Positions 2,462-57,783 of a stretch of DNA of 64,000 nt are shown piece after piece (position 1 is the first letter of the stretch; every line of letters starts with the position of its first letter). This DNA is from Escherichia coli (GTDB taxonomy: Bacteria > Pseudomonadota > Gammaproteobacteria > Enterobacterales > Enterobacteriaceae), in assembly GCF_001677475.2 (NCBI RefSeq), contig NZ_CP015229.1; one strand, written 5' to 3'. The notes under the pieces were generated by a model, which made no database searches, was not told the DNA's origin, and was given only the letters and a program-made list of their open reading frames with translations. The position numbers and the translations under genes were made by a program.

Positions 2462-2478
2462 GTTGCTCTAATTATTTT
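2462..2478. promoter_or_regulatory. C1 repressor operator-like site (14/17 to ATTGCTCTAATAAATTT)
   Basis: gttgctctaattatttt in the divergent intergenic region between the cassette and the c4/icd/ant module. Confidence 0.4.
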
Positions 2479-2549
2479 ATTTTTTTAGCTTCATATGCTA
2501 CATTAACTTGCTTGCGTGCTAATGCATTTTCGGTTTATCCTAAACAGGC

Positions 2550-2627
2550 ATCTTAGTAAAATGGATGCCGGGATTGGAACCCCGGATAATGCAAAAGGCG
2601 ACACAGACGCCAAAAGCGTCTTTTTTT
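2550..2627 (+). ncRNA. c4: c4-type antisense RNA candidate (immI); ends approximate
   Basis: hairpin ccggg-attggaac-cccgg (2568-2585) then gacgc-caaaa-gcgtc + T7 terminator (2606-2627); loop complementary to gttccaa at 2730-2736 in the icd leader; block conserved with second copy at 50709-50811. Confidence 0.4.
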
Positions 2628-2812
2628 GTGTCATGCCATCGCACAGCCATACGTAGCACATAGCTCCGAGATCAATGGTAGTGCTGGCTGGGCTGCCGAA
2701 AGGCAGGCCGGTTCCCTTTTGCGCCGGTAGTTCCAACCCAGTCAGTGCTACCGCCATTGAGATTGGAACCTCACGCGGTAGCTCCTTAAATTAGCAAAAG
2801 GAGGCTGCCATT

Positions 2813-3034
2813 GTGGCTACTATCCCTACCCCTACTCATCCTGAATTTATCTGGCGCTTTTACTCCTGCCAAAAACACCACTATCACTTCGTTATCGCAG
2901 CAACAGAAGACGAAGCACGCTCTCAATTGCCTGATGGCCCCTGCATTTTTACTGCCCGTTTTTCAACTAACTCGCGCAATTCACTTAGTTACTGGAACCT
3001 CCCCTTCTCTGCCGACGTTCAGGGGGGTTTATGA
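2813..3034 (+). CDS. icd: Icd-like small protein (cell-division inhibitor of immI)
   Basis: 73 codons, GTG start with aaaggagg RBS; stop overlaps ant start (ATGA); position and size as P1 icd (from memory). Confidence 0.7.
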   Translation: MATIPTPTHPEFIWRFYSCQKHHYHFVIAATEDEARSQLPDGPCIFTARFSTNSRNSLSYWNLPFSADVQGGL

Positions 3035-4074
3035 AAAAACCTCTCGTCACCCGGAATGAAATAGCCGAAGCGATCGCCCTGCATACTGCCTGTATGCCGA
3101 CACGGGAGATCCCCGGCGCAATTGCCAACTATTTCATGATAACCAAGCGTTTTTATACCCGGATAGATAAGGCTGTGATCAACAGGCTACTGATAGCCGA
3201 GATCAGGGATTATTTGATTGAACAAGGACGTCTACGTTACGCAACAGTGGCAGCAGAAATGAGAAAGGAGGCACATAGAATGACCGGTAATAATTTGAAT
3301 GTTGAAAAACCAGCACCTGTTGCTTCAGCTACGCCAGCACCAGCCGTGAATGTCATCCCCAACACCGGAGACACAATCGACAGCCAAACATTGTTGAAGA
3401 TGGTCAATGAGGCACGCAAGTTATGTGGAGAACCATTGGTTAGAAACAATAAATTCATCGAAAAAATACTCGACGAATTAGAAGGTGAGGACGGTTACAC
3501 AAAAAGTGCAACCGTGCCGCCAGGTGGCGGTACGCCTATGGTTGTCATAACCATGACCTACAAACAAGCCCTGCGAGTTGCCGCGCGCGAGTCAAAAGCG
3601 GTCCGCCGTTCGCTGATCGACAAACTGGAAGAATTGCAGCAGGCAAACTCCCCTGCCCCATCGATCCCCCAAACATTACCAGAAGCTCTACGCCTGGCTG
3701 CCGAGTTGGCAGAACAGAAAATGCAGTTGGAACAACAGCTGGTGGCCGCAGCCCCTAAAGTCGATTTTGCCGACCGGGTATCAGTGGCCAATGGAATCCT
3801 GATCGGGAACTTTGCAAAGGTCGTTGGACTTAAGCAAAACGCCCTTTTCTCATGGTTGCGCCAGAGCGGCATTCTCATGGCTTTTGGTGAGCGCAAAAAC
3901 GTACCGCGCCAGCAATACATTAATGCCGGGTATTTCACGGTGAAAGAAGTGGTGCTGGATGATGAAAATGGCTACCAGATACGGCTGACGCCCCAATTAA
4001 CGGGTAAAGGCCAGCAGTGGTTAACTCGCAAGCTACTTGATGCTGGTTTGTTAAAACCAGTAGCAATAGGTTAA
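3031..4074 (+). CDS. ant1: antirepressor Ant1 (KilAC/ANT C-terminal domain)
   Basis: 347 aa; translationally coupled to icd; C-terminal PQTLPEALRLAAELAEQK...GKGQQWL block shared with kilA and the second ant-like gene. Confidence 0.8.
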   Translation: MKKPLVTRNEIAEAIALHTACMPTREIPGAIANYFMITKRFYTRIDKAVINRLLIAEIRDYLIEQGRLRYATVAAEMRKEAHRMTGNNLNVEKPAPVASATPAPAVNVIPNTGDTIDSQTLLKMVNEARKLCGEPLVRNNKFIEKILDELEGEDGYTKSATVPPGGGTPMVVITMTYKQALRVAARESKAVRRSLIDKLEELQQANSPAPSIPQTLPEALRLAAELAEQKMQLEQQLVAAAPKVDFADRVSVANGILIGNFAKVVGLKQNALFSWLRQSGILMAFGERKNVPRQQYINAGYFTVKEVVLDDENGYQIRLTPQLTGKGQQWLTRKLLDAGLLKPVAIG

Positions 4075-4084
4075 TAAAAGAAAA

Positions 4085-4112
4085 AAACCTGCCAGCAAAC
4101 TGGCAGGTTTCT
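4085..4112 (+). terminator. intrinsic terminator after ant
   Basis: acctgccag-caaa-ctggcaggt hairpin followed by tttct. Confidence 0.55.
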
Positions 4113-11409: not shown

Positions 11410-13137
11410 TTACTCAGAGTCACCGGCATCAATCGTGTCGCCGCTTATGAAGTTAAGCCCGCCTTTTTTGGCCATTGTCAGCGTTACACGAGTGAAGTAA
11501 TCAGCGCCGTTGCGTGGGTGCATATCGTTGATAGCCGAACCCCACAGCGTGGTACGGTTGACCAGCGCCGGAGTGGTCGGATGCTGGAACGGGATGGCCG
11601 GGACAGCATCACCAGTCACGAAGCCTGCTTTACCCGGATTTTCATCACGGACGTAGCACAGCACATCCATCGAGCTGAACTGAATGTTCTCTGTCGTTAA
11701 GTTCTTACAAATACCAGCAGGTACTTCGTACACTTTCACGTTACCGAACAGGGTACCGATGTAGTGAACATACGGAGTCTGGATATAGTCTTCGGCTGGC
11801 TGGAAGAAATCCTTCGGCAACTGTTTGAAGAAAGATGCTGCATCAGCACCAGCAAACATCCCCATCGCACCAGAAGATTTAACGCGCTCAATAATGTCGC
11901 GATATACAGTCTGGAATTTGCCACGAATGATGGTTGCCCATACATCAAAGGACTGGTTAACCGGCAGAGCGATGTCAAAGGTGTCGGTCGCAAGAGTGCG
12001 CCAGATCATGATGCGAAGACGCAGCATATCCTGTTCATGAGACAGGTATTCCTTCAGGGTGCGGAACTGTAGGGAACCCAGGTCCAGACCAAATTCACGC
12101 TGTGCTTCATACGCCGCCTGTACCGTGTGCTCAGCCGCGATAACGAACTGGCTTGGGAACAGGGTGTATTTCTTCATTTCGTGGTTGATCAGCGGGATCA
12201 GCTCAGGAGCGGCTTCAATATTGATTTCCGTCTCAATTGCGATCTCAGTGCCTTTATCCGGCGCTTTGGAGAACGACAGGGCAATCTGACCAATGTTGTA
12301 GTTCAGAGAGCAAGTAACAGTGATTTGCTCACCAGCAGCATTAGTAAACGAGTGAAGTAGGCTGCCGGAACCGTTATCAACAACAGACTTAATACGGTTA
12401 ACGTAGATGTTAGTGCGACCTTTTCGGATTGGTACATTCTGGCCTTCGAAGTCTTCCATCTTGAAGGTTGCGGTTTTGCTGGTGCCATCGGAGCTTGCCA
12501 CCAGCACATAGCGGCGGCGTAACTGGCTGTACACACCGACGGATTGCATGTCCAGAACATCACCAGCAGCATAAGAACCAAAAGAGGAACCTGCCACGTT
12601 AAAGACTTCATAGATGTCGGACTGGTCACGCGTAACCGGAATGAAGGTACACGCATCAGCGGTAGCTGCCCCCAACTGAACAGGCAGGATCATCGCGAGG
12701 AATAAAGGCAGACGCATAACACCGTCAGAAACGCTCATCATCTCTGCTGCGACGGATTCCAGCATCGCTTTATTAGTGGCATCCATGCTATTGCGGGTGG
12801 ACTCAATCAGGCAGTTTTCCAGCGTCTGGTGGCAGGAGGCCAGAATTTCCGGACGCGGCATAGATTTATGTGCTGCGGCGTAGTCAGCCAGTGCACTTGC
12901 CCACGCTGTAGCGATTTGAGCGGTGGCATTATCAGAGATACCCGCAAAAATCGGGTCTTTGCGTGCAGCTTCAAGGATAGATGCGGCACGCGCGGCATCA
13001 TCTTTGATGAATTGGTTATCAGTACCGAACTGTGCTGCACTTGCCCAGCCAAGAACGGCTTTAGAGCGTTTTGCGATATCTGCAATACGATTCTGGTATT
13101 CGCGTAAGTTACTCAAGTTACTCTTCCTTAAACACAA
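11410..13137 (-). CDS. large virion structural protein (P1 gp23-like, putative major head protein)
   Basis: 575 aa ORF immediately upstream of the sheath-like gene. Confidence 0.45.
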   Translation of the reverse strand: MCLRKSNLSNLREYQNRIADIAKRSKAVLGWASAAQFGTDNQFIKDDAARAASILEAARKDPIFAGISDNATAQIATAWASALADYAAAHKSMPRPEILASCHQTLENCLIESTRNSMDATNKAMLESVAAEMMSVSDGVMRLPLFLAMILPVQLGAATADACTFIPVTRDQSDIYEVFNVAGSSFGSYAAGDVLDMQSVGVYSQLRRRYVLVASSDGTSKTATFKMEDFEGQNVPIRKGRTNIYVNRIKSVVDNGSGSLLHSFTNAAGEQITVTCSLNYNIGQIALSFSKAPDKGTEIAIETEINIEAAPELIPLINHEMKKYTLFPSQFVIAAEHTVQAAYEAQREFGLDLGSLQFRTLKEYLSHEQDMLRLRIMIWRTLATDTFDIALPVNQSFDVWATIIRGKFQTVYRDIIERVKSSGAMGMFAGADAASFFKQLPKDFFQPAEDYIQTPYVHYIGTLFGNVKVYEVPAGICKNLTTENIQFSSMDVLCYVRDENPGKAGFVTGDAVPAIPFQHPTTPALVNRTTLWGSAINDMHPRNGADYFTRVTLTMAKKGGLNFISGDTIDAGDSE

Positions 13138-49154: not shown

Positions 49155-50638
49155 TGGCCAGAAGTTGCGTAACGGATCCGCGTTGGCGCGAGCTGGTGGC
49201 GCTATATCGTTATGACTGGATTGCGGCGGCAGATGTTTTGTTCGGCAAAACACCTACCTGGCAGCAGGATCTGATTATTGAGTCTGTGCAGGAACAGGGT
49301 AGCAAGACATCTGTTTCGTCTGGTCACGGTACCGGGAAATCAGACATGACTTCTATCATGATCATGTTGTTCATAATCATGTATCCCGGTGCCCGCGCCA
49401 TTATCGTTGCGAACAAAATTCAGCAGGTAATGACCGGTATATTCAAGTACATCAAGATAAACTGGGCTACGGCCACCAGCCGTTTTCCATGGCTTGCTGA
49501 TTATTTTGTTCTGACAGAAACCGCTTTCTATGAGGTTACTGGTAAAGGTGTATGGACTGTAGTACCGAAGGGCTTTCGTCTGGGAAGTGAAGAAGCTCTC
49601 GCTGGTGAACACGCAGACCATCTTCTGTATATTATCGATGAAGCCTCCGGTGTCAGTGATAGAGCTTTCGGTATCATCACCGGTGCTCTTACCGGACAGG
49701 ATAACCGCATCTTATTGCTGTCACAGCCTACACGCCCAAGCGGCTATTTCTACGATACTCACCATAAACTGGCCAAGCGTCCTGGTAACCCTGATGGCGT
49801 TTATACGGCGATCACGCTTAACAGTGAGGAATCACCGCTGGTAACGCCAGCATTTATCAAAATGAAGCTGGCGGAGTACGGCGGGCGTGATAACCCTATG
49901 TACATGATTAAGGTACGCGGCCTATTCCCTAAATCACAGGATGGCTTCCTTCTTGGACGTGATGAGGTTGAACGTGCAACGCGGCGGAAAGTCAAGATTG
50001 CCAAAGGATGGGGCTGGCTTGCATGTGTGGACGTTGCTGGTGGTACGGGACGGGATAAGTCCGTTATCAATATCATGATGGTGTCCGGCCAGCGAAATAA
50101 ACGCCGTGTAATCAACTATCGAATGCTGGAATACACAGACGTTACAGAAACGCAGCTTGCTGCCAAAATTTTCGCAGAATGTAATCCTGAGCGATTCCCC
50201 AATATCACCATAGCGATAGACGGCGATGGCCTGGGTAAAGCAACGGCGGATCTGATGTACGAGTATTATGGTATTACCGTACAGCGTATACGCTGGGGTA
50301 AAAAGATGCATAGCCGTGAAGATAAGAGCCTGTACTTTGATAAACGTGCTTATGCCAACGTTCAAGCCGCAGAGGCCGTAAAATCTGGTCGTATGAGACT
50401 GGATAAGGGTAATGAAACTATTGAGGAAGCGTCGAAAATCCCTGTAGGGATTAACTCCGCAGGTCAATGGAAGGTGATGAGTAAGGAGGATATGAAGAAA
50501 AAACTCAACCTGCACTCACCAGACCATTGGGATACATATTGTTTCGCTATGCTGGCGGATTATGTTCCCCAGGATGAAGTGCTTAGCGTCGAAGACGAAG
50601 CGCAGGTTGATGAAGCTCTGGCATGGCTTAATGAATGA
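49154..50638 (+). CDS. pacB: terminase large subunit PacB
   Basis: 494 aa, overlaps pacA stop. Confidence 0.85.
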
Positions 50639-50640
50639 AT

Positions 50641-50658
50641 ATTTGCTCTAATAAATTG
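50641..50658. promoter_or_regulatory. C1 operator immediately after pacB
   Basis: atttgctctaataaattg. Confidence 0.6.
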
Positions 50659-50734
50659 TGTTTTTTAACTACCGATGTTACATTGAACCTGACCTCTTGC
50701 GCCTTGAGGCATTTTCGGTTTATGCTGATCAGGC

Positions 50735-50811
50735 ACCTCATTAAAACGGGTGCCGGGATTGGCCTCCCGCTTAAGTCTAAGGCGATACAGACGCCGCTCG
50801 CGTCTTTTTTT
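50735..50811 (+). ncRNA. second c4-type antisense RNA candidate with different loop; ends approximate
   Basis: hairpin cggga-ttggcc-tcccg (50754-50769) then gacgc-cgctc-gcgtc + T7 (50790-50811); loop complementary to ggccaa at 50895-50900. Confidence 0.4.
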
Positions 50812-50976
50812 GTATCGGCGTACACGCACACCTCTACAATGGTGGGCTGTATGGGGCTACCTTCGGGTAGGCTGGTTACCTTGGACGCCAGTAAGGCCAA
50901 CTCCGTACAGTCCACCGCCAGCAAGATTGGTCTCTTCTGCGGTGGTTACATACCAACGTCTAAGGAGGCTGCCATT

Positions 50977-51198
50977 ATGGCTACTACCCCTACCCCAGCT
51001 CACCCTGAATTCATCTGGCGCTTTTACTCCTGCCAGAAACGTCACTATCACTTCGTTATCGCACCAACAGAAGATGAGGCACGTTCTCAGCTTCCGGATG
51101 CTCCCTGTATTTTCTCCGCCCGTTTTTCTACCGATTTGCGCAATTCTCTCAGTTACTGGTGCCCCCCTGTAAACGCTTGTGCTCAGGAGGGACTATGA
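50977..51198 (+). CDS. Icd-like small protein, paralog of 2813-3034
   Basis: 73 aa MATTPTPAHPEFIWRFYSCQKRHYHF..., taaggagg RBS, stop overlaps next ATG. Confidence 0.65.
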   Translation: MATTPTPAHPEFIWRFYSCQKRHYHFVIAPTEDEARSQLPDAPCIFSARFSTDLRNSLSYWCPPVNACAQEGL

Positions 51199-52310
51199 GA
51201 ACGTCATTAGTCACCCGTGAAGAGATGATCGAGGCAATTGAACAGCACACTGCTTGTATCAGTACCAGGGATATACCAGGCGTTATAGCCAACTACTTCA
51301 TGATCACCAAACAACTTTACCGGAGAAAGGACAAGAACGCGGTTCACCGCATCCTGCTGTCTGATATCCGCGAATACCTGCTCGAACAGGGGCATCTGAA
51401 TTACGCAACCGTCGCAGCCGAAACACGCAAGGAGGCACACAGAATGAAAGCAACTAACGTTAAATCAGAAAAAGTTCATGCACCTTCAGTTCAGGAGTCA
51501 GAGCTGGTGGTTGTTCAGAATCAGTCTGATGAAATTCCCGTTCTGGAATGGCTGGGAGTGCGTGTAGTGACAACCAAGATCCTTGCTAAGGGGTATGGGA
51601 CCGATGCGGATAACATCAAGAAGAACTTTTCCCGTAATGCTGAACGTTTTTGTGAAGGCAAGCATTTCTATAAAGTTATTGGAGATGATTTGAACAATTT
51701 GCGGGTGACTTTAAGTAACTCACAAAATCCCATCTCTCCTAAAGCCCGCTCACTCATCCTCTGGACGGAACGAGGAGCTGCCCGTCACGCAAAAATGCTC
51801 GAAACAGATCAGGCATGGGCATTCTTTGAAAAACTGGAAGACAGCTACTTCCGACAAAAAGAACAGCAACCGATCGCAATCCCCCAGACGCTTCCAGAAG
51901 CTCTGCGCCTGGCTGCCGAGCTGGCTGAACAAAAGCAACTTCTGGAACAGAAAACCCACCAGCTAAATCAGCAGCTGGTGGCCGCAGCCCCTAAAGTCGA
52001 TTTTGCCGACCGGGTATCAGTGGCTAAGGGGATCCTGATTGGGAATTTTGCAAAGGTTGTTGGACTTAAGCAAAATGCGCTGTTTGCCTGGTTACGGGAG
52101 AACGGCATCCTGATTGCGTCCGGCGGACGTAAAAATGTACCGTTTCAGCAGTACATAAACGCCGGATATTTCACAGTGAGAGAAGTGGTGCTGGATGATG
52201 AAGATGGCTATCAGATACGGCTGACGCCTCAATTAACGGGGAAAGGCCAACAGTGGTTGACGCGTAAACTGCTCGATGCTGGCTTGTTAAAACCGGTGGC
52301 GGCTGAATAA
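51195..52310 (+). CDS. antirepressor-like protein (Ant N-terminus, Bro-N-like middle, KilAC C-terminus)
   Basis: 371 aa from ATG 51195 (ORF track starts earlier at 51159); N- and C-terminal blocks shared with Ant1. Confidence 0.7.
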   Translation: MRTSLVTREEMIEAIEQHTACISTRDIPGVIANYFMITKQLYRRKDKNAVHRILLSDIREYLLEQGHLNYATVAAETRKEAHRMKATNVKSEKVHAPSVQESELVVVQNQSDEIPVLEWLGVRVVTTKILAKGYGTDADNIKKNFSRNAERFCEGKHFYKVIGDDLNNLRVTLSNSQNPISPKARSLILWTERGAARHAKMLETDQAWAFFEKLEDSYFRQKEQQPIAIPQTLPEALRLAAELAEQKQLLEQKTHQLNQQLVAAAPKVDFADRVSVAKGILIGNFAKVVGLKQNALFAWLRENGILIASGGRKNVPFQQYINAGYFTVREVVLDDEDGYQIRLTPQLTGKGQQWLTRKLLDAGLLKPVAAE

Positions 52311-52316
52311 TGGAAG

Positions 52317-52340
52317 AATGCCCGGTTGATGCCGGGCATA
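52317..52340. terminator. bidirectional terminator between ant-like gene and c1
   Basis: atgcccgg-ttgat-gccgggcat. Confidence 0.55.
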
Positions 52341-52342
52341 AT

Positions 52343-53194
52343 TTATTGCGCGCTTTCGGGGTTGTCGTTTACTGGCTGCCCCTTCTTAGTTTTACGGCTG
52401 CGCGTAACTGATGCGGCTGACTTAACCTTTTTCTCTTCGCGAGTGATGGCAATTTGTTTTTTTACATTTTCAATATCTGCCAGGCGATATATTTTTGCTT
52501 GCGGCCAGCGGTCGCAGATGATCGGTTCTATGGAGTCATAAAGGCTAAATTTTGCTTTTTCGAATTCACCGTTGATGATAATTCCATCACGGAGAGTTTC
52601 ATCGCAGATAAACACGCCACACAGTGGCACATGGTAACTAACTGATTTACCATCATTGTAGTTAGGGCTACTGGAAATGTAGTGGACGCGCAGCATTGTT
52701 TCGCTAAAGCCGTGTACGCGCATACGGAATTTTTCATCCTCTGGGTACTGCTTCATTAGCTCTTTTGTTGCTTCCAGGTTCTCTATGTATTTCGCACTGT
52801 GCTCATTGATCCCCGCGCTTTTTTGGATGCGAATGTCCTTATCAATCAGATGAATAATGCGGCCAGCGGTCATGTTGACGCTGTTCACAGCTTCTGTCTG
52901 ATAAGTCGTAACCTTACGTACACCGCGAAGGATGTTAGGCACAGGATATAAAATAGTCTTTGGGATATTGAGGTCTGGGTACTGTTCCAGTTCCCGCGCC
53001 ATTAAAGTCCATTTATCAATTTCAGCCTGAATGCTGTCTGTTTCTTTGAACGGTAGAACGACAACCGGGCGTACAGGACGACCGTCGCTGGCGGCATCAA
53101 CGTGTTGGGCGCGTGCAACAGCTTTTTTTAGAAAGAGATCCCTGAAGCTGACGAACTCCTGGTACAGTTGTTCGCCGTAGACATAATTTATCAT
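52343..53194 (-). CDS. c1: C1 primary immunity repressor
   Basis: 283 aa; length and sequence match P1 C1 as recalled; C1 operator matches across window. Confidence 0.9.
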   Translation of the reverse strand: MINYVYGEQLYQEFVSFRDLFLKKAVARAQHVDAASDGRPVRPVVVLPFKETDSIQAEIDKWTLMARELEQYPDLNIPKTILYPVPNILRGVRKVTTYQTEAVNSVNMTAGRIIHLIDKDIRIQKSAGINEHSAKYIENLEATKELMKQYPEDEKFRMRVHGFSETMLRVHYISSSPNYNDGKSVSYHVPLCGVFICDETLRDGIIINGEFEKAKFSLYDSIEPIICDRWPQAKIYRLADIENVKKQIAITREEKKVKSAASVTRSRKTKKGQPVNDNPESAQ

Positions 53195-54755: not shown

Positions 54756-55783
54756 CTAAATCGTTAACCGTTCACCAAAATTTGCCTGCATTGCCGGTCG
54801 ATGCAACGAGTGATGAGGTTCGCAAGAACCTGATGGATATGTTCAGGGATCGCCAGGCGTTTTCTGAGCATACCTGGAAAATGCTTCTGTCCGTTTGCCG
54901 GTCATGGGCGGCATGGTGCAAGTTGAATAACCGGAAATGGTTTCCCGCAGAACCTGAAGATGTTCGCGATTATCTTCTATATCTTCAGGCGCGCGGTCTG
55001 GCAGTAAAAACTATCCAGCAACATTTGGGCCAGCTAAACATGCTTCATCGTCGGTCCGGGCTGCCGCGACCAAGTGACAGCAATGCTGTTTCACTGGTTA
55101 TGCGGCGGATCCGAAAAGAAAACGTTGATGCCGGTGAACGTGCAAAACAGGCACTAGCGTTCGAACGCACTGATTTCGACCAGGTTCGTTCACTCATGGA
55201 AAATAGCGATCGCTGCCAGGATATACGTAATCTGGCATTTCTGGGGATTGCTTATAACACCCTGTTACGTATAGCCGAAATTGCCAGGATCAGGGTTAAA
55301 GATATCTCACGTACTGACGGTGGGAGAATGTTAATCCATATTGGCAGAACGAAAACGCTGGTTAGCACCGCAGGTGTAGAGAAGGCACTTAGCCTGGGGG
55401 TAACTAAACTGGTCGAGCGATGGATTTCTGTCTCTGGTGTGGCTGATGATCCGAATAACTACTTGTTTTGCCGGGTCAGAAAAAATGGTGTTGCCTCGCC
55501 ATCACCCACCAGCCAGCTATCAACTCGCGCCCTGGAAGGGATTTTTGAAGCAACTCACCGATTGATTTACGGGGCTAAGGATGACTCTGGCCAGAGGTAC
55601 CTGGCCTGGTCTGGACACAGTGCCCGTGTCGGAGCCGCGCGAGATATGGCCCGTGCCGGAGTTTCAATACCGGAGATCATGCAAGCTGGTGGCTGGACCA
55701 ACGTAAATATTGTCATGAACTATATCCGTAACCTGGATAGTGAAACAGGGGCAATGGTGCGCCTGCTGGAAGATGGCGATTAG
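54752..55783 (+). CDS. cre: Cre tyrosine recombinase
   Basis: 343 aa; sequence from LTVHQNLPALPVD onward matches Cre as recalled. Confidence 0.97.
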   Translation: MTKSLTVHQNLPALPVDATSDEVRKNLMDMFRDRQAFSEHTWKMLLSVCRSWAAWCKLNNRKWFPAEPEDVRDYLLYLQARGLAVKTIQQHLGQLNMLHRRSGLPRPSDSNAVSLVMRRIRKENVDAGERAKQALAFERTDFDQVRSLMENSDRCQDIRNLAFLGIAYNTLLRIAEIARIRVKDISRTDGGRMLIHIGRTKTLVSTAGVEKALSLGVTKLVERWISVSGVADDPNNYLFCRVRKNGVASPSPTSQLSTRALEGIFEATHRLIYGAKDDSGQRYLAWSGHSARVGAARDMARAGVSIPEIMQAGGWTNVNIVMNYIRNLDSETGAMVRLLEDGD

Positions 55784-55800
55784 CCATTAATGCGTAAATG

Positions 55801-55817
55801 ATTGCTCTAATTCTTTG
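55801..55817. promoter_or_regulatory. C1 operator-like site
   Basis: attgctctaattctttg. Confidence 0.5.
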
Positions 55818-55833
55818 ATATTTATGGTGACAT

Positions 55834-56145
55834 ATGAGAAAGGATTTCAACATCGACGGAAAATATGTAGTGCTGTCTGTAAGCACTAATATTCAGTCGC
55901 CAGCCGTCATTGTCACTGTAAAGCTGAGCGATAGAATGCCTGATATTGACTCAATATCCGTTGCGTTTCCTGTCAAAAGTATGCGTAGTGCTGAACATTT
56001 CGTGATGAATGCCACCGAGGAAGAAGCACGGCGCGGTTTTGCTAAAGTGATGTCTGAGTTTGGCGAACTCTTGGGTAAGGTTAACAATGTCCTTTCAATC
56101 AGTTCAGCAAGGTCCAAAGCGTTAACAGCTTCCATGATGAAATAA
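55834..56145 (+). CDS. cra: hypothetical protein (P1 cra position)
   Basis: 103 aa ORF immediately after cre. Confidence 0.5.
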   Translation: MRKDFNIDGKYVVLSVSTNIQSPAVIVTVKLSDRMPDIDSISVAFPVKSMRSAEHFVMNATEEEARRGFAKVMSEFGELLGKVNNVLSISSARSKALTASMMK

Positions 56146-56277
56146 AAAAAAGCTTGGCAAGGAGCCAGGCTGCACAAAAGAGCGGGTTTGTATTCCGCAT
56201 CCAATCAATCAAGAAGGAGTATAGCACACTGGTACTGAAGTGAAAAAATGTGATTCGCGATAAACAAAATATCTATC

Positions 56278-56294
56278 ATTGCTCTAATTGATTG
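56278..56294. promoter_or_regulatory. C1 operator upstream of ref
   Basis: attgctctaattgattg. Confidence 0.55.
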
Positions 56295-56392
56295 CTATAA
56301 TTGAGCCGCGGTTTTTGTCAACTACGAAGACGAGCCATTACTTAACTCCTTGACATCATAGGCGGCCATTAGGCCGCCTTTTTTTTGACCAT

Positions 56393-56953
56393 ATGAAAAC
56401 AATCGAACAAAAAATTGAACAGTGCCGCAAGTGGCAGAAGGCAGCCAGAGAACGAGCGATCGCTCGGCAACGGGAGAAGTTGGCTGATCCGGTCTGGCGA
56501 GAATCTCAATATCAGAAAATGCGAGATACTATCGACCGCCGTATCGCTAAACAGAAAGAGCGCCCACCAGCCAGCAAAACGCGGAAAAGCGCGGTAAAAA
56601 TAAAATCTCGTGGCTTGAAGGGGAGAACACCAACGGCGGAGGAACGGCGCATCGCCAATGCTCTTGGCGCTCTCCCCTGCATTGCCTGCTATATGCATGG
56701 AGTAATATCTAATGAGGTGTCTCTGCACCATATCGCCGGTCGTACCGCGCCGGGTTGTCATAAAAAGCAATTGCCACTTTGTAGATGGCACCACCAGCAT
56801 GCAGCTCCGGCTGAAGTAAGAGAAAAATACCCCTGGCTGGTCCCTGTTCATGCCGATGGTGTGGTTGGAGGCAAGAAAGAATTCACCTTGCTGAACAAGT
56901 CAGAGATGGAGTTGCTGGCTGACGCCTATGAAATGGCAAACATCATGCACTAA
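56393..56953 (+). CDS. ref: Ref recombination-enhancement HNH endonuclease
   Basis: 186 aa; HNH-like CIACYMHG...HHIAG...CRWHH; position after cre/cra. Confidence 0.85.
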   Translation: MKTIEQKIEQCRKWQKAARERAIARQREKLADPVWRESQYQKMRDTIDRRIAKQKERPPASKTRKSAVKIKSRGLKGRTPTAEERRIANALGALPCIACYMHGVISNEVSLHHIAGRTAPGCHKKQLPLCRWHHQHAAPAEVREKYPWLVPVHADGVVGGKKEFTLLNKSEMELLADAYEMANIMH

Positions 56954-57114
56954 TAAATATATTATTTTTAATCTTAAATGATTGACAACTGACAAGTGAC
57001 TTGAGTCAGAATCATCACACGCCCGGTACGGATGGATCCCTTTTCAAATATTCCATGGACGGCACAGTCTGAGTACCGGGCGCTACCTTCAGTTGTATTG
57101 CTAAGCCGCCGCTG

Positions 57115-57783
57115 GTGGCTTTTCTTTTTGTAGGGGGAGCTATGGATAAGAAAATATGCGTTGTTTCGATGAACGTCGGCAAACCGGCGTCAATGACTGC
57201 TGCATGGATCAACAACGAGCTGATAATGGCTGAGCGGACCAGCTACCCTGAACGCCGCCGCGACATGGAACTCCAGCTGCTGCGCGAATTGCGAGAAAAA
57301 GAGGAAAAGGGTTTTATCGTGCTGGTGGAAGAGGAAAACAGCTTTATTACTGGTCGAGTTGGCCAGCGTGTAAGGTTGCGCGATCCCTTCATGAACGGCA
57401 GGCCGGTACTGATTGAAGCAATGCAGATTTACAAGGAGCTGGAACGCCAGAAAGCGATCAAGTTACCACGCAAGGAGTCCGGCAAGTACATTCTCCATCA
57501 AAGCATCTTCGATTCCGAACACGACAAAAAAGGCGATGAATTTTTCAACATCAACTGGAGCGAAATAACCACAGAGCACGTTCTGACGCTACTATGTTGC
57601 TTTGCAACGGAATACAACAACGTGGTGAGCGCGCACTACATTCAGGCAATGGCTGGTAGGATTAATACGCAGCGTGAGCCCTCGCTGATAGAGCCATTCA
57701 TCAATATTATTAATGCTACTCAACGAATGGGAGAAACACGTGTGCCGCAAGGCTTACTCACAGGTAAATATGATTACCTTTAA
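57115..57783 (+). CDS. hypothetical protein (P1 mat position; start may be internal)
   Basis: 222 aa ORF following ref. Confidence 0.45.
   Translation: MAFLFVGGAMDKKICVVSMNVGKPASMTAAWINNELIMAERTSYPERRRDMELQLLRELREKEEKGFIVLVEEENSFITGRVGQRVRLRDPFMNGRPVLIEAMQIYKELERQKAIKLPRKESGKYILHQSIFDSEHDKKGDEFFNINWSEITTEHVLTLLCCFATEYNNVVSAHYIQAMAGRINTQREPSLIEPFINIINATQRMGETRVPQGLLTGKYDYL

Follow-up and report, generated by a model that had tools for sequence, protein, structure and literature searches.

The 64-kb window analysed here (the whole stretch of 64,000 nucleotides from Escherichia coli contig NZ_CP015229.1) is a P1-like phage-plasmid. Immunity in P1 has two layers, the C1 protein and the C4 RNA, and the textbook example of specificity residing in a small RNA is the heteroimmunity of P1 and P7. 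Besides the canonical immI cassette of this system, the window carries a 1.7-kb cassette that fits exactly between the stop codons of pacB and c1 and is probably a second, functional version of the P1 immI antirepressor switch. An initial annotation, made from the sequence alone, had proposed a second, diverged c4/icd/antirepressor module of the immI type at this site. Rfam and Pfam searches and alignment with P1 bore this out, and every feature that it listed was found in place or within a few bases. The antisense RNA and its target sites were assigned wrongly and are reassigned below. The known immI mechanism is unchanged by the cassette.

The stop codon of pacB lies at 50638, and c1, on the minus strand from 53194 to 52343, encodes an intact protein of 283 aa (NF041318, 610.9 bits). 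The cassette (50637-52342) stands in place of the short spacer between them and extends exactly from the stop codon of pacB to the stop codon of c1. That P1 has nothing at this position, as the initial annotation stated, is correct: the pacB stop at 93206 and the c1 stop at 93231 are separated by only 24 bp. Direct comparison of the junction showed that the spacer is also 24 bp in SJ46. When P7 was aligned the cassette found no match except P7's own immI ant, and it is absent from P7 at the same position. A mobile-element origin of the cassette was rejected, since the replacement runs from stop codon to stop codon and neither direct repeats nor insertion sequence (IS) ends were visible at the insertion boundaries. 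The parts of the cassette are as follows.

50642-50658, plus strand: C1 repressor operator TTTGCTCTAATAAATTG, equivalent of P1 Oc4/Op51 (15/17 consensus matches; aligns with the annotated P1 Oc4)
50656-50684, plus strand: candidate C1-controlled promoter, P51a/P2c4 equivalent, TTGTGT-17-TGtTACATT with extended -10 (alignment to the annotated P1 P2c4)
50697-50726, plus strand: candidate constitutive promoter, P51b/P1c4 equivalent, TTGCGC-18-TATGCT (alignment to the annotated P1 P1c4)
50733-50811, plus strand: leader RNA of IsrK / c4-a1b1 type (Rfam RF01394, 60.8 bits, gathering score 50; terminator scan; fold)
50759-50765, plus strand: a1, TTGGCCT, in the hairpin loop of the leader, complementary to a' of C4
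50775-50782, plus strand: b1, GTCTAAGG, complementary to b' of C4
50789-50811, plus strand: intrinsic terminator, GACGC...GCGTC stem (50789-50805) followed by T7 (terminator scan)
50835-50922, plus strand: second C4 antisense RNA (Rfam RF01695, 75.9 bits, gathering score 45, matched over the full model, positions 1-87 of 87)
50879-50887, plus strand: b', CCUUGGACG, loop of hairpin 2 of C4 (fold)
50894-50900, plus strand: a', AGGCCAA, single-stranded junction of C4 (fold)
50927-50933, plus strand: a2, TTGGTCT, complementary to a' and in the same position as the annotated P1 a2
50957-50965, plus strand: b2, CGTCTAAGG, complementary to b', positioned as the annotated P1 b2 and overlapping the icd Shine-Dalgarno sequence AAGGAGG (50962-50968)
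50977-51198, plus strand: icd paralogue encoding an Icd-like cell-division inhibitor of 73 aa (NF033153, 49.8 bits, cut-off 25)
51195-52310, plus strand: ant1, 371 aa (Pfam PF10543, 1.1e-17; PF03374, 2.4e-30)
52318-52339, no strand assigned: GC-rich hairpin between the convergent ant and c1 (terminator scan; fold -18 kcal/mol, z -4.5)

The stretch 50835-50922 is a C4-family RNA by model match, fold and complementarity. Its RF01695 score exceeds those of P1 (68.8) and P7 (69.6). The mature RNA, here C4-2, is predicted to span about 50841-50919 (79 nt), where the annotated c4 of P1 aligns. In the predicted fold, which has the C4 architecture, a closing stem of 16 bp encloses two hairpins; b' occupies a loop of 10 nt and a' a junction of 8 nt, and both are unpaired. 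The minimum free energy (MFE) is -41.8 kcal/mol with a z score of -4.06, and the centroid structure is identical to the MFE structure. All pairs (27/27) are kept in the other 80-nt backbone, that of the window immI copy, RCS47 and relatives. Nine pairs are changed on both sides and are thus compensatory, compared with 1.6 in shuffles and 0-2 in slid controls. Pairs were counted over six 80-nt sequences, and the P1/P7 backbone with its 2-nt length difference was left out. A MAFFT alignment of 18 C4 variants misplaced this length difference and was not used for the counts. Directly after the closing stem is a tRNA-like GCCA, as expected of an RNase P substrate, suggesting that C4-2 would be processed by RNase P. 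Apparently identical C4-2 sequences occur in p94_0962-2, with the same Rfam score, and in 24 IMG/VR copies.

Upstream of C4-2 lies the leader RNA. The isrK match spans 50733-50810 and starts where a transcript from the P51b-like promoter would begin. The fold places a hairpin with the loop UUGGCC at 50754-50769, and the intrinsic terminator follows; both elements had been located correctly in the initial annotation. The equivalent leaders of P1 and P7 match a different model, RF03163 'c4-a1b1' (a1, b1 targets of C4), and not RF01394. Thus the leaders of both window cassettes (2548-2626 and 50733-50810) fall under RF01394 and those of P1 and P7 (locus L004, 1718-1770; locus L126, 631-683) under RF03163. 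The two models appear to represent a single functional element found in different backbones. The isrK family, named for a Gifsy-1 small RNA of Salmonella, is not listed in the C4 clan CL00128.

C4-2 is complementary to a1 and b1 in the leader and to a2 and b2 ahead of icd. In the second cassette contiguous pairing extends over 7 bp for a':a1, 7 bp for a':a2, 8 bp for b':b1 and 9 bp, including one G.U, for b':b2. Cassettes were collected from IMG/VR by scanning for exact matches to a conserved 17-mer of icd, and from GenBank loci. This gave 121 cassettes, or 123 with the two window copies, and a C4 was recognisable in 119/123. The 119 cassettes represent 15 a'/b' types, made from five a' and nine b' variants, and in each of the 15 types a1, b1, a2 and b2 match the C4. 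The sites therefore covary. P1 itself has type CUGUCAA/CACUAAC and P7 has CUGCUAA/CACAAUC. The pacB-c1 copy has type AGGCCAA/CCUUGGACG and the window immI copy has type GUUCCAA/CCUUUUGC. Among the IMG/VR loci (L005-L124) the a' and b' variants appear in mixed combinations, such as the P7 a' with the P1 b', and all four sites always match. Because the sites are interleaved along the DNA, such combinations need several crossovers or coordinated mutation. Matching in each combination also suggests that a1 and b1, called only 'putative' in the P1 annotation, are under the same constraint as a2 and b2.

We predict that the two C4 RNAs in the window act orthogonally. Scored by contiguous pairing, the two window cassettes gave 7/8 and 6.5/8.5 for cognate pairs and 4/5 and 4/4 for cross pairs. 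With the same scoring P1 and P7 gave 7/9 for cognate pairs and 3.5-5 for cross pairs. P1 and P7 are heteroimmune through c4 (review PMC12197685). Since the pairing gap is the same in the window, its two C4 RNAs are predicted not to repress each other's targets. The initial annotation had also expected two c4 RNAs of different specificity; a' and b' do differ between the copies, but the RNA that it had in mind was not C4, which lies at 50835-50922. Co-residence was examined wherever a genome or contig carried at least two cassettes, which was so in 24. Not one of the 49 pairs of co-resident cassettes shares a type, compared with a mean of 5.0 after shuffling (P = 0.003), in a statistic that takes no account of the position bias of C4 types.

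Sites resembling the C1 operator are far more frequent in the window than expected by chance (8 versus 0.02). The operator at the start of the second cassette (50642-50658, two mismatches) overlaps the -35 element of the P51a-like candidate promoter. The block gcattttcggtttat, present in both cassettes (2524-2538 and 50709-50723) as originally noted, corresponds to the spacer and the first three bases of the -10 hexamer of the P51b-like promoter. At the far end the hairpin at 52318-52339 is likely a two-way terminator, so that the cassette is bracketed by operator and terminator as proposed initially. Within 52318-52342 ant-2 and c1 converge on this single hairpin, which has weak T tracts on both sides. 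Read-through from the derepressed cassette past the hairpin would make RNA antisense to c1.

The proteins encoded by the second cassette are designated Icd-2 and Ant-2. Icd-2 is 79% identical to the Icd of the immI copy (2813-3034). The start codon of ant1 overlaps the stop codon of icd as ATGA (51195-51198), and icd translation is expected to be needed for ant expression. A second start, ant2, is nested in frame at ATG 51444 behind AAGGAGG. The 73-aa Icd-like ORF and the coupled KilAC antirepressor thus agree with the initial description. Ant-2 consists of an Ant1-specific N-terminus, an ORF6N domain (aa 117-201) and an ANT/KilAC domain (aa 259-360). It is 55% identical overall to Ant1 of immI (BLASTP 8e-127), and the last 140 aa are nearly identical. 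Nonsynonymous (dN) and synonymous (dS) substitution rates were compared with 29 distinct relatives at the same site. The dN/dS ratio of ant is 0.05-0.25, and dN of icd is well below dS. Most of the 52 pacB-c1 cassettes with sequence reaching far enough keep an Icd of 73 aa and an Ant of 370-372 aa; the 73-aa Icd is intact in nearly all relatives, and ant or icd is truncated in a few. These results show that the module is under purifying selection.

The canonical immI cassette of the window was identified in the same way.

2462-4110, plus strand: canonical immI cassette (Rfam leader 58.9 bits, C4 76.7 bits)
2462-2478, plus strand: immI operator (C1 operator match)
2548-2626, plus strand: immI isrK-like leader (RF01394, 58.9 bits)
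2671-2758, plus strand: immI C4, a' GUUCCAA, b' CCUUUUGC (RF01695, 76.7 bits)
2813-3034, plus strand: immI icd
3031-4074, plus strand: immI ant1, middle part without ORF6N
about 4086-4110: immI terminator

The second cassette matches the P1/P7 immI operon in the order and spacing of all parts. Shared elements are the operator, two promoter positions, the a1/b1 leader, C4, the a2/b2 sites over the icd ribosome binding site (RBS), a 73-aa Icd, an ATGA-coupled ant1, a nested ant2 and the KilAC C-terminus. The P1/P7 immI operon lies between sim and kilA-repL, whereas the cassette lies between pacB and c1, and it is therefore a paralogous module and not the immI locus itself. It also differs from P1/P7 immI in its C4 backbone and a'/b' sequences, in its IsrK-type leader with a strong intrinsic terminator, in the ORF6N domain at the centre of Ant and in converging on c1.

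The leader also matches the covariance model of IsrK from the isrK-orf45-anrP locus of Gifsy-1 in Salmonella (IsrK, STnc1160). The two loci share their layout: a short terminated RNA accompanied by a read-through mRNA, translational coupling of a small ORF to an antirepressor, and behind IsrK or the leader a stable RNA that arises by processing (PMC4825925). In Gifsy-1 IsrK activates, in trans, the translation of the coupled small ORF and antirepressor (PMC4825925). Hfq binding and trans-activation by the short RNA are known only for Gifsy-1. The short P1-type leader RNA, with its perfect a1/b1 sites, may likewise act as an activator, for example through titration of C4, or as a decoy. Phage P4 immunity (CI RNA, seqA, seqC) likewise involves a processed leader RNA that pairs with sites upstream and downstream of itself, and the analogy of the IsrK locus to P4 was pointed out by the authors of PMC4825925. 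P4 is likened here by description and not by sequence; it controls replication genes via premature termination and has no Icd/Ant pair.

By homology with P1 and P7 we infer how the switch would work. Transcription would proceed from the C1-operated promoter and from a second, probably constitutive, promoter. Many transcripts would end at the terminator of the leader, as IsrK-like RNAs of about 78 nt with a1 and b1, and the C4 precursor would be carried on read-through transcripts. A cut by RNase P at the foot of the tRNA-like stem, before GCCA, would release a C4 of about 79 nt. This RNA would pair through a' in the junction and b' in the loop with a2 and b2 of the same kind of transcript. Pairing would mask the icd RBS, and without icd translation the coupled ant1/ant2 would remain silent. 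Were C4 outrun or titrated, for example on infection of a cell without this C4 type, Icd and Ant would be made, and Ant would inactivate the C1 repressor. Because a' and b' differ from the immI copy as much as those of P1 differ from those of P7, each C4 should control its own ant only. If so, the element carries two independent immunity specificities.

Several observations weigh against this account. A generic consensus promoter scan of 50500-52500 found no sigma-70 site in 50640-50730; because it called neither promoter, both were placed by homology to P1. The 7 bp of a':a2 hold one G.U wobble, and the bias already mentioned bears on the co-residence result. The middle third of Ant-2 is an ORF6N domain (PF10543) that is missing from the immI Ant of the window, so that C1 may not be its partner. 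The main rival explanation follows from this last point. The cassette could be regulated as described while Ant-2 acts on a repressor other than its own C1, such as that of another resident prophage or a rival P1-like element, and serve in cross-talk or as a weapon between elements. Relatives with up to three cassettes would be consistent with such a target. So would the independent recombination of the ant body and the c4 region, as Ant-2 is close to the RCS47 Ant (dN 0.009) and the C4 backbones differ. Conversely, Ant-2 and the immI Ant have both the Ant1-specific N-terminus and the KilAC C-terminus in common, with the near-identity over the last 140 aa, and the cassette has its own C1 operator and adjoins c1. 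We therefore regard a target other than C1 as rather unlikely, though it is the alternative to be taken most seriously.

Two further explanations are much less probable. In the initial annotation the hairpin-terminator RNA at 50733-50811 was the c4-type regulator and ggccaa at 50895 was its target on the mRNA. The complementarity between the UUGGCC loop (at 50760) and GGCCAA is real, and a short terminated trans-acting RNA from the leader may well exist by analogy with Gifsy-1 IsrK (PMC4825925). However, the pairing is that of a1 with a' inside C4 and not of a C4 loop with an mRNA target. The match of the C4 covariance model is at 50835-50922; the leader gives none and matches isrK instead. 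The P1 annotation agrees, as the annotated P1 c4 aligns with 50841-50919, and the P1/P7 equivalent of the leader belongs to RF03163. Moreover, ggccaa lies in the unpaired junction of C4 and covers no RBS, as the Shine-Dalgarno sequence of icd lies 62 nt and the start codon 77 nt farther downstream. The mRNA targets are a2 (50927-50933) and b2 (50957-50965). This anatomy is thus highly improbable. The cassette might also be a decaying or silent duplicate without present function. It is dispensable, given the empty junction in 311 E. coli genomes, and a few relatives have the truncations of ant or icd noted above. Yet the ORFs are intact here and in most relatives, ant has the low dN/dS already given, the RNA structure is kept through nine compensatory pairs and all four target sites match. 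Loss of function is scarcely credible under these circumstances. A working second immI-type switch remains our preferred explanation.

To determine how widespread the module is, complete E. coli genomes were searched by means of the cassette flanks. Among 5,426 genomes, 248 have a contiguous pacB-cassette-c1 arrangement and 311 have an empty junction, so that about 44% of scorable P1-like elements carry the cassette. The best database match to the cassette and its flanks was 97.2%. In PLSDB, 280 plasmids contain at least 80% of the cassette; this count is not site-specific, because the ant of ref-locus cassettes is very similar, and the flank-based counts are preferred. RCS47 (NC_042128) has the same architecture at the same site, with 91% nucleotide identity over the 1.7-kb cassette, and a same-site 'ant' insertion is found in pTZ20_1P and other P1-like plasmids. 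SJ46, phiW39 and 813R1 carry the pacB allele of the window (99.4-99.6%). Direct comparison of the junction showed that SJ46 lacks the cassette, and phiW39 and 813R1 probably lack it too, because their matches end 2 nt before the pacB stop. The cassette is an ordinary, polymorphic and widespread accessory module of the P1 family; it does not belong to the conserved core. Reference genomes of this family, RCS47 among them, have the module at the same position, a finding that the initial annotation had named as counting against its reading.

The C4 type of RCS47 is GUCUCAA/CCUUUGAC, unlike that of the second cassette, and its C4 backbone differs as well. This backbone matches the window immI copy and not the pacB-c1 copy. 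In contrast, Ant-2 and the RCS47 Ant (locus L001) are almost identical (dN 0.009, dS 0.20). The comparison points to exchange by recombination, both among cassettes and among sites, with a breakpoint around icd.

The novelty implied initially does not hold for the module or its site. Venturini et al. 2019 (PMC6906374) mentioned an insertion between pacB and c1, including that of RCS47. PMC9603915 names none of the cassette genes. No description of a second c4 or of orthogonal C4 sets in P1-like elements was found in the literature searched, though a prior description is possible. The RCS47 record annotates only 'ant' and has no RNA feature. In RefSeq/PGAP the leader and C4 stretch is labelled a pseudogene, a partial 'ash family protein', and no ncRNA feature is given (NZ_CP074794.1; locus L125 797-1114, corresponding to window positions of about 50636-50953). 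Genome pipelines thus consistently overlook the RNA gene. The present analysis adds a corrected annotation of the RNA and the prediction that the C4 RNAs are orthogonal.

The rules of immunity and superinfection in the P1-like family are likely more combinatorial than the P1/P7 model suggests, because about 44% of scorable elements carry a complete second switch beside c1, predicted to be orthogonal, and some relatives a third. This family includes carriers of extended-spectrum beta-lactamase (ESBL) and other resistance genes. Typing of a' and b' would give a simple predictor of which P1-like elements are able to coexist or to induce each other. We tentatively propose, as a possibility that we hold to be less probable than not, that P1-like phage-plasmids keep up to three mutually orthogonal C4/Icd/Ant cassettes at fixed hot spots, namely immI, pacB-c1 and the place of ref. 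Their a'/b' sequences would be shuffled combinatorially and never duplicated within an element, forming an RNA-coded immunity 'barcode'. An extra cassette would allow a resident to silence one more class of incoming antirepressor, and an infecting phage would gain one more antirepressor, which a resident may be unable to silence. Once derepressed, the copy beside c1 might also depress c1 by convergent transcription.

A third c4-icd-ant cassette was observed in relatives (loci L011, L022, L053, L063, L074 and L122), where it replaces ref in the opposite orientation. The flanks of this third site match window positions of about 56945-57656 on one side and about 54767-56384 on the other. The ref gene of the window is intact (56393-56953), and no third C4 was found in the window. 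Some contigs carry three cassettes, each of a different a'/b' type. In locus L056 (IMGVR_UViG_2534681832_000017, 11975-12987) two matches to the icd pattern lie only 1 kb apart downstream of pacB and differ in C4 type. This looks like a tandem pair of c4-icd units, of which the first lacks a full-length ant. Elsewhere in the window there are three tRNA genes on the plus strand, at 24546-24618, 24624-24696 and 26327-26399 (Rfam tRNA, 64.7-74.5 bits).

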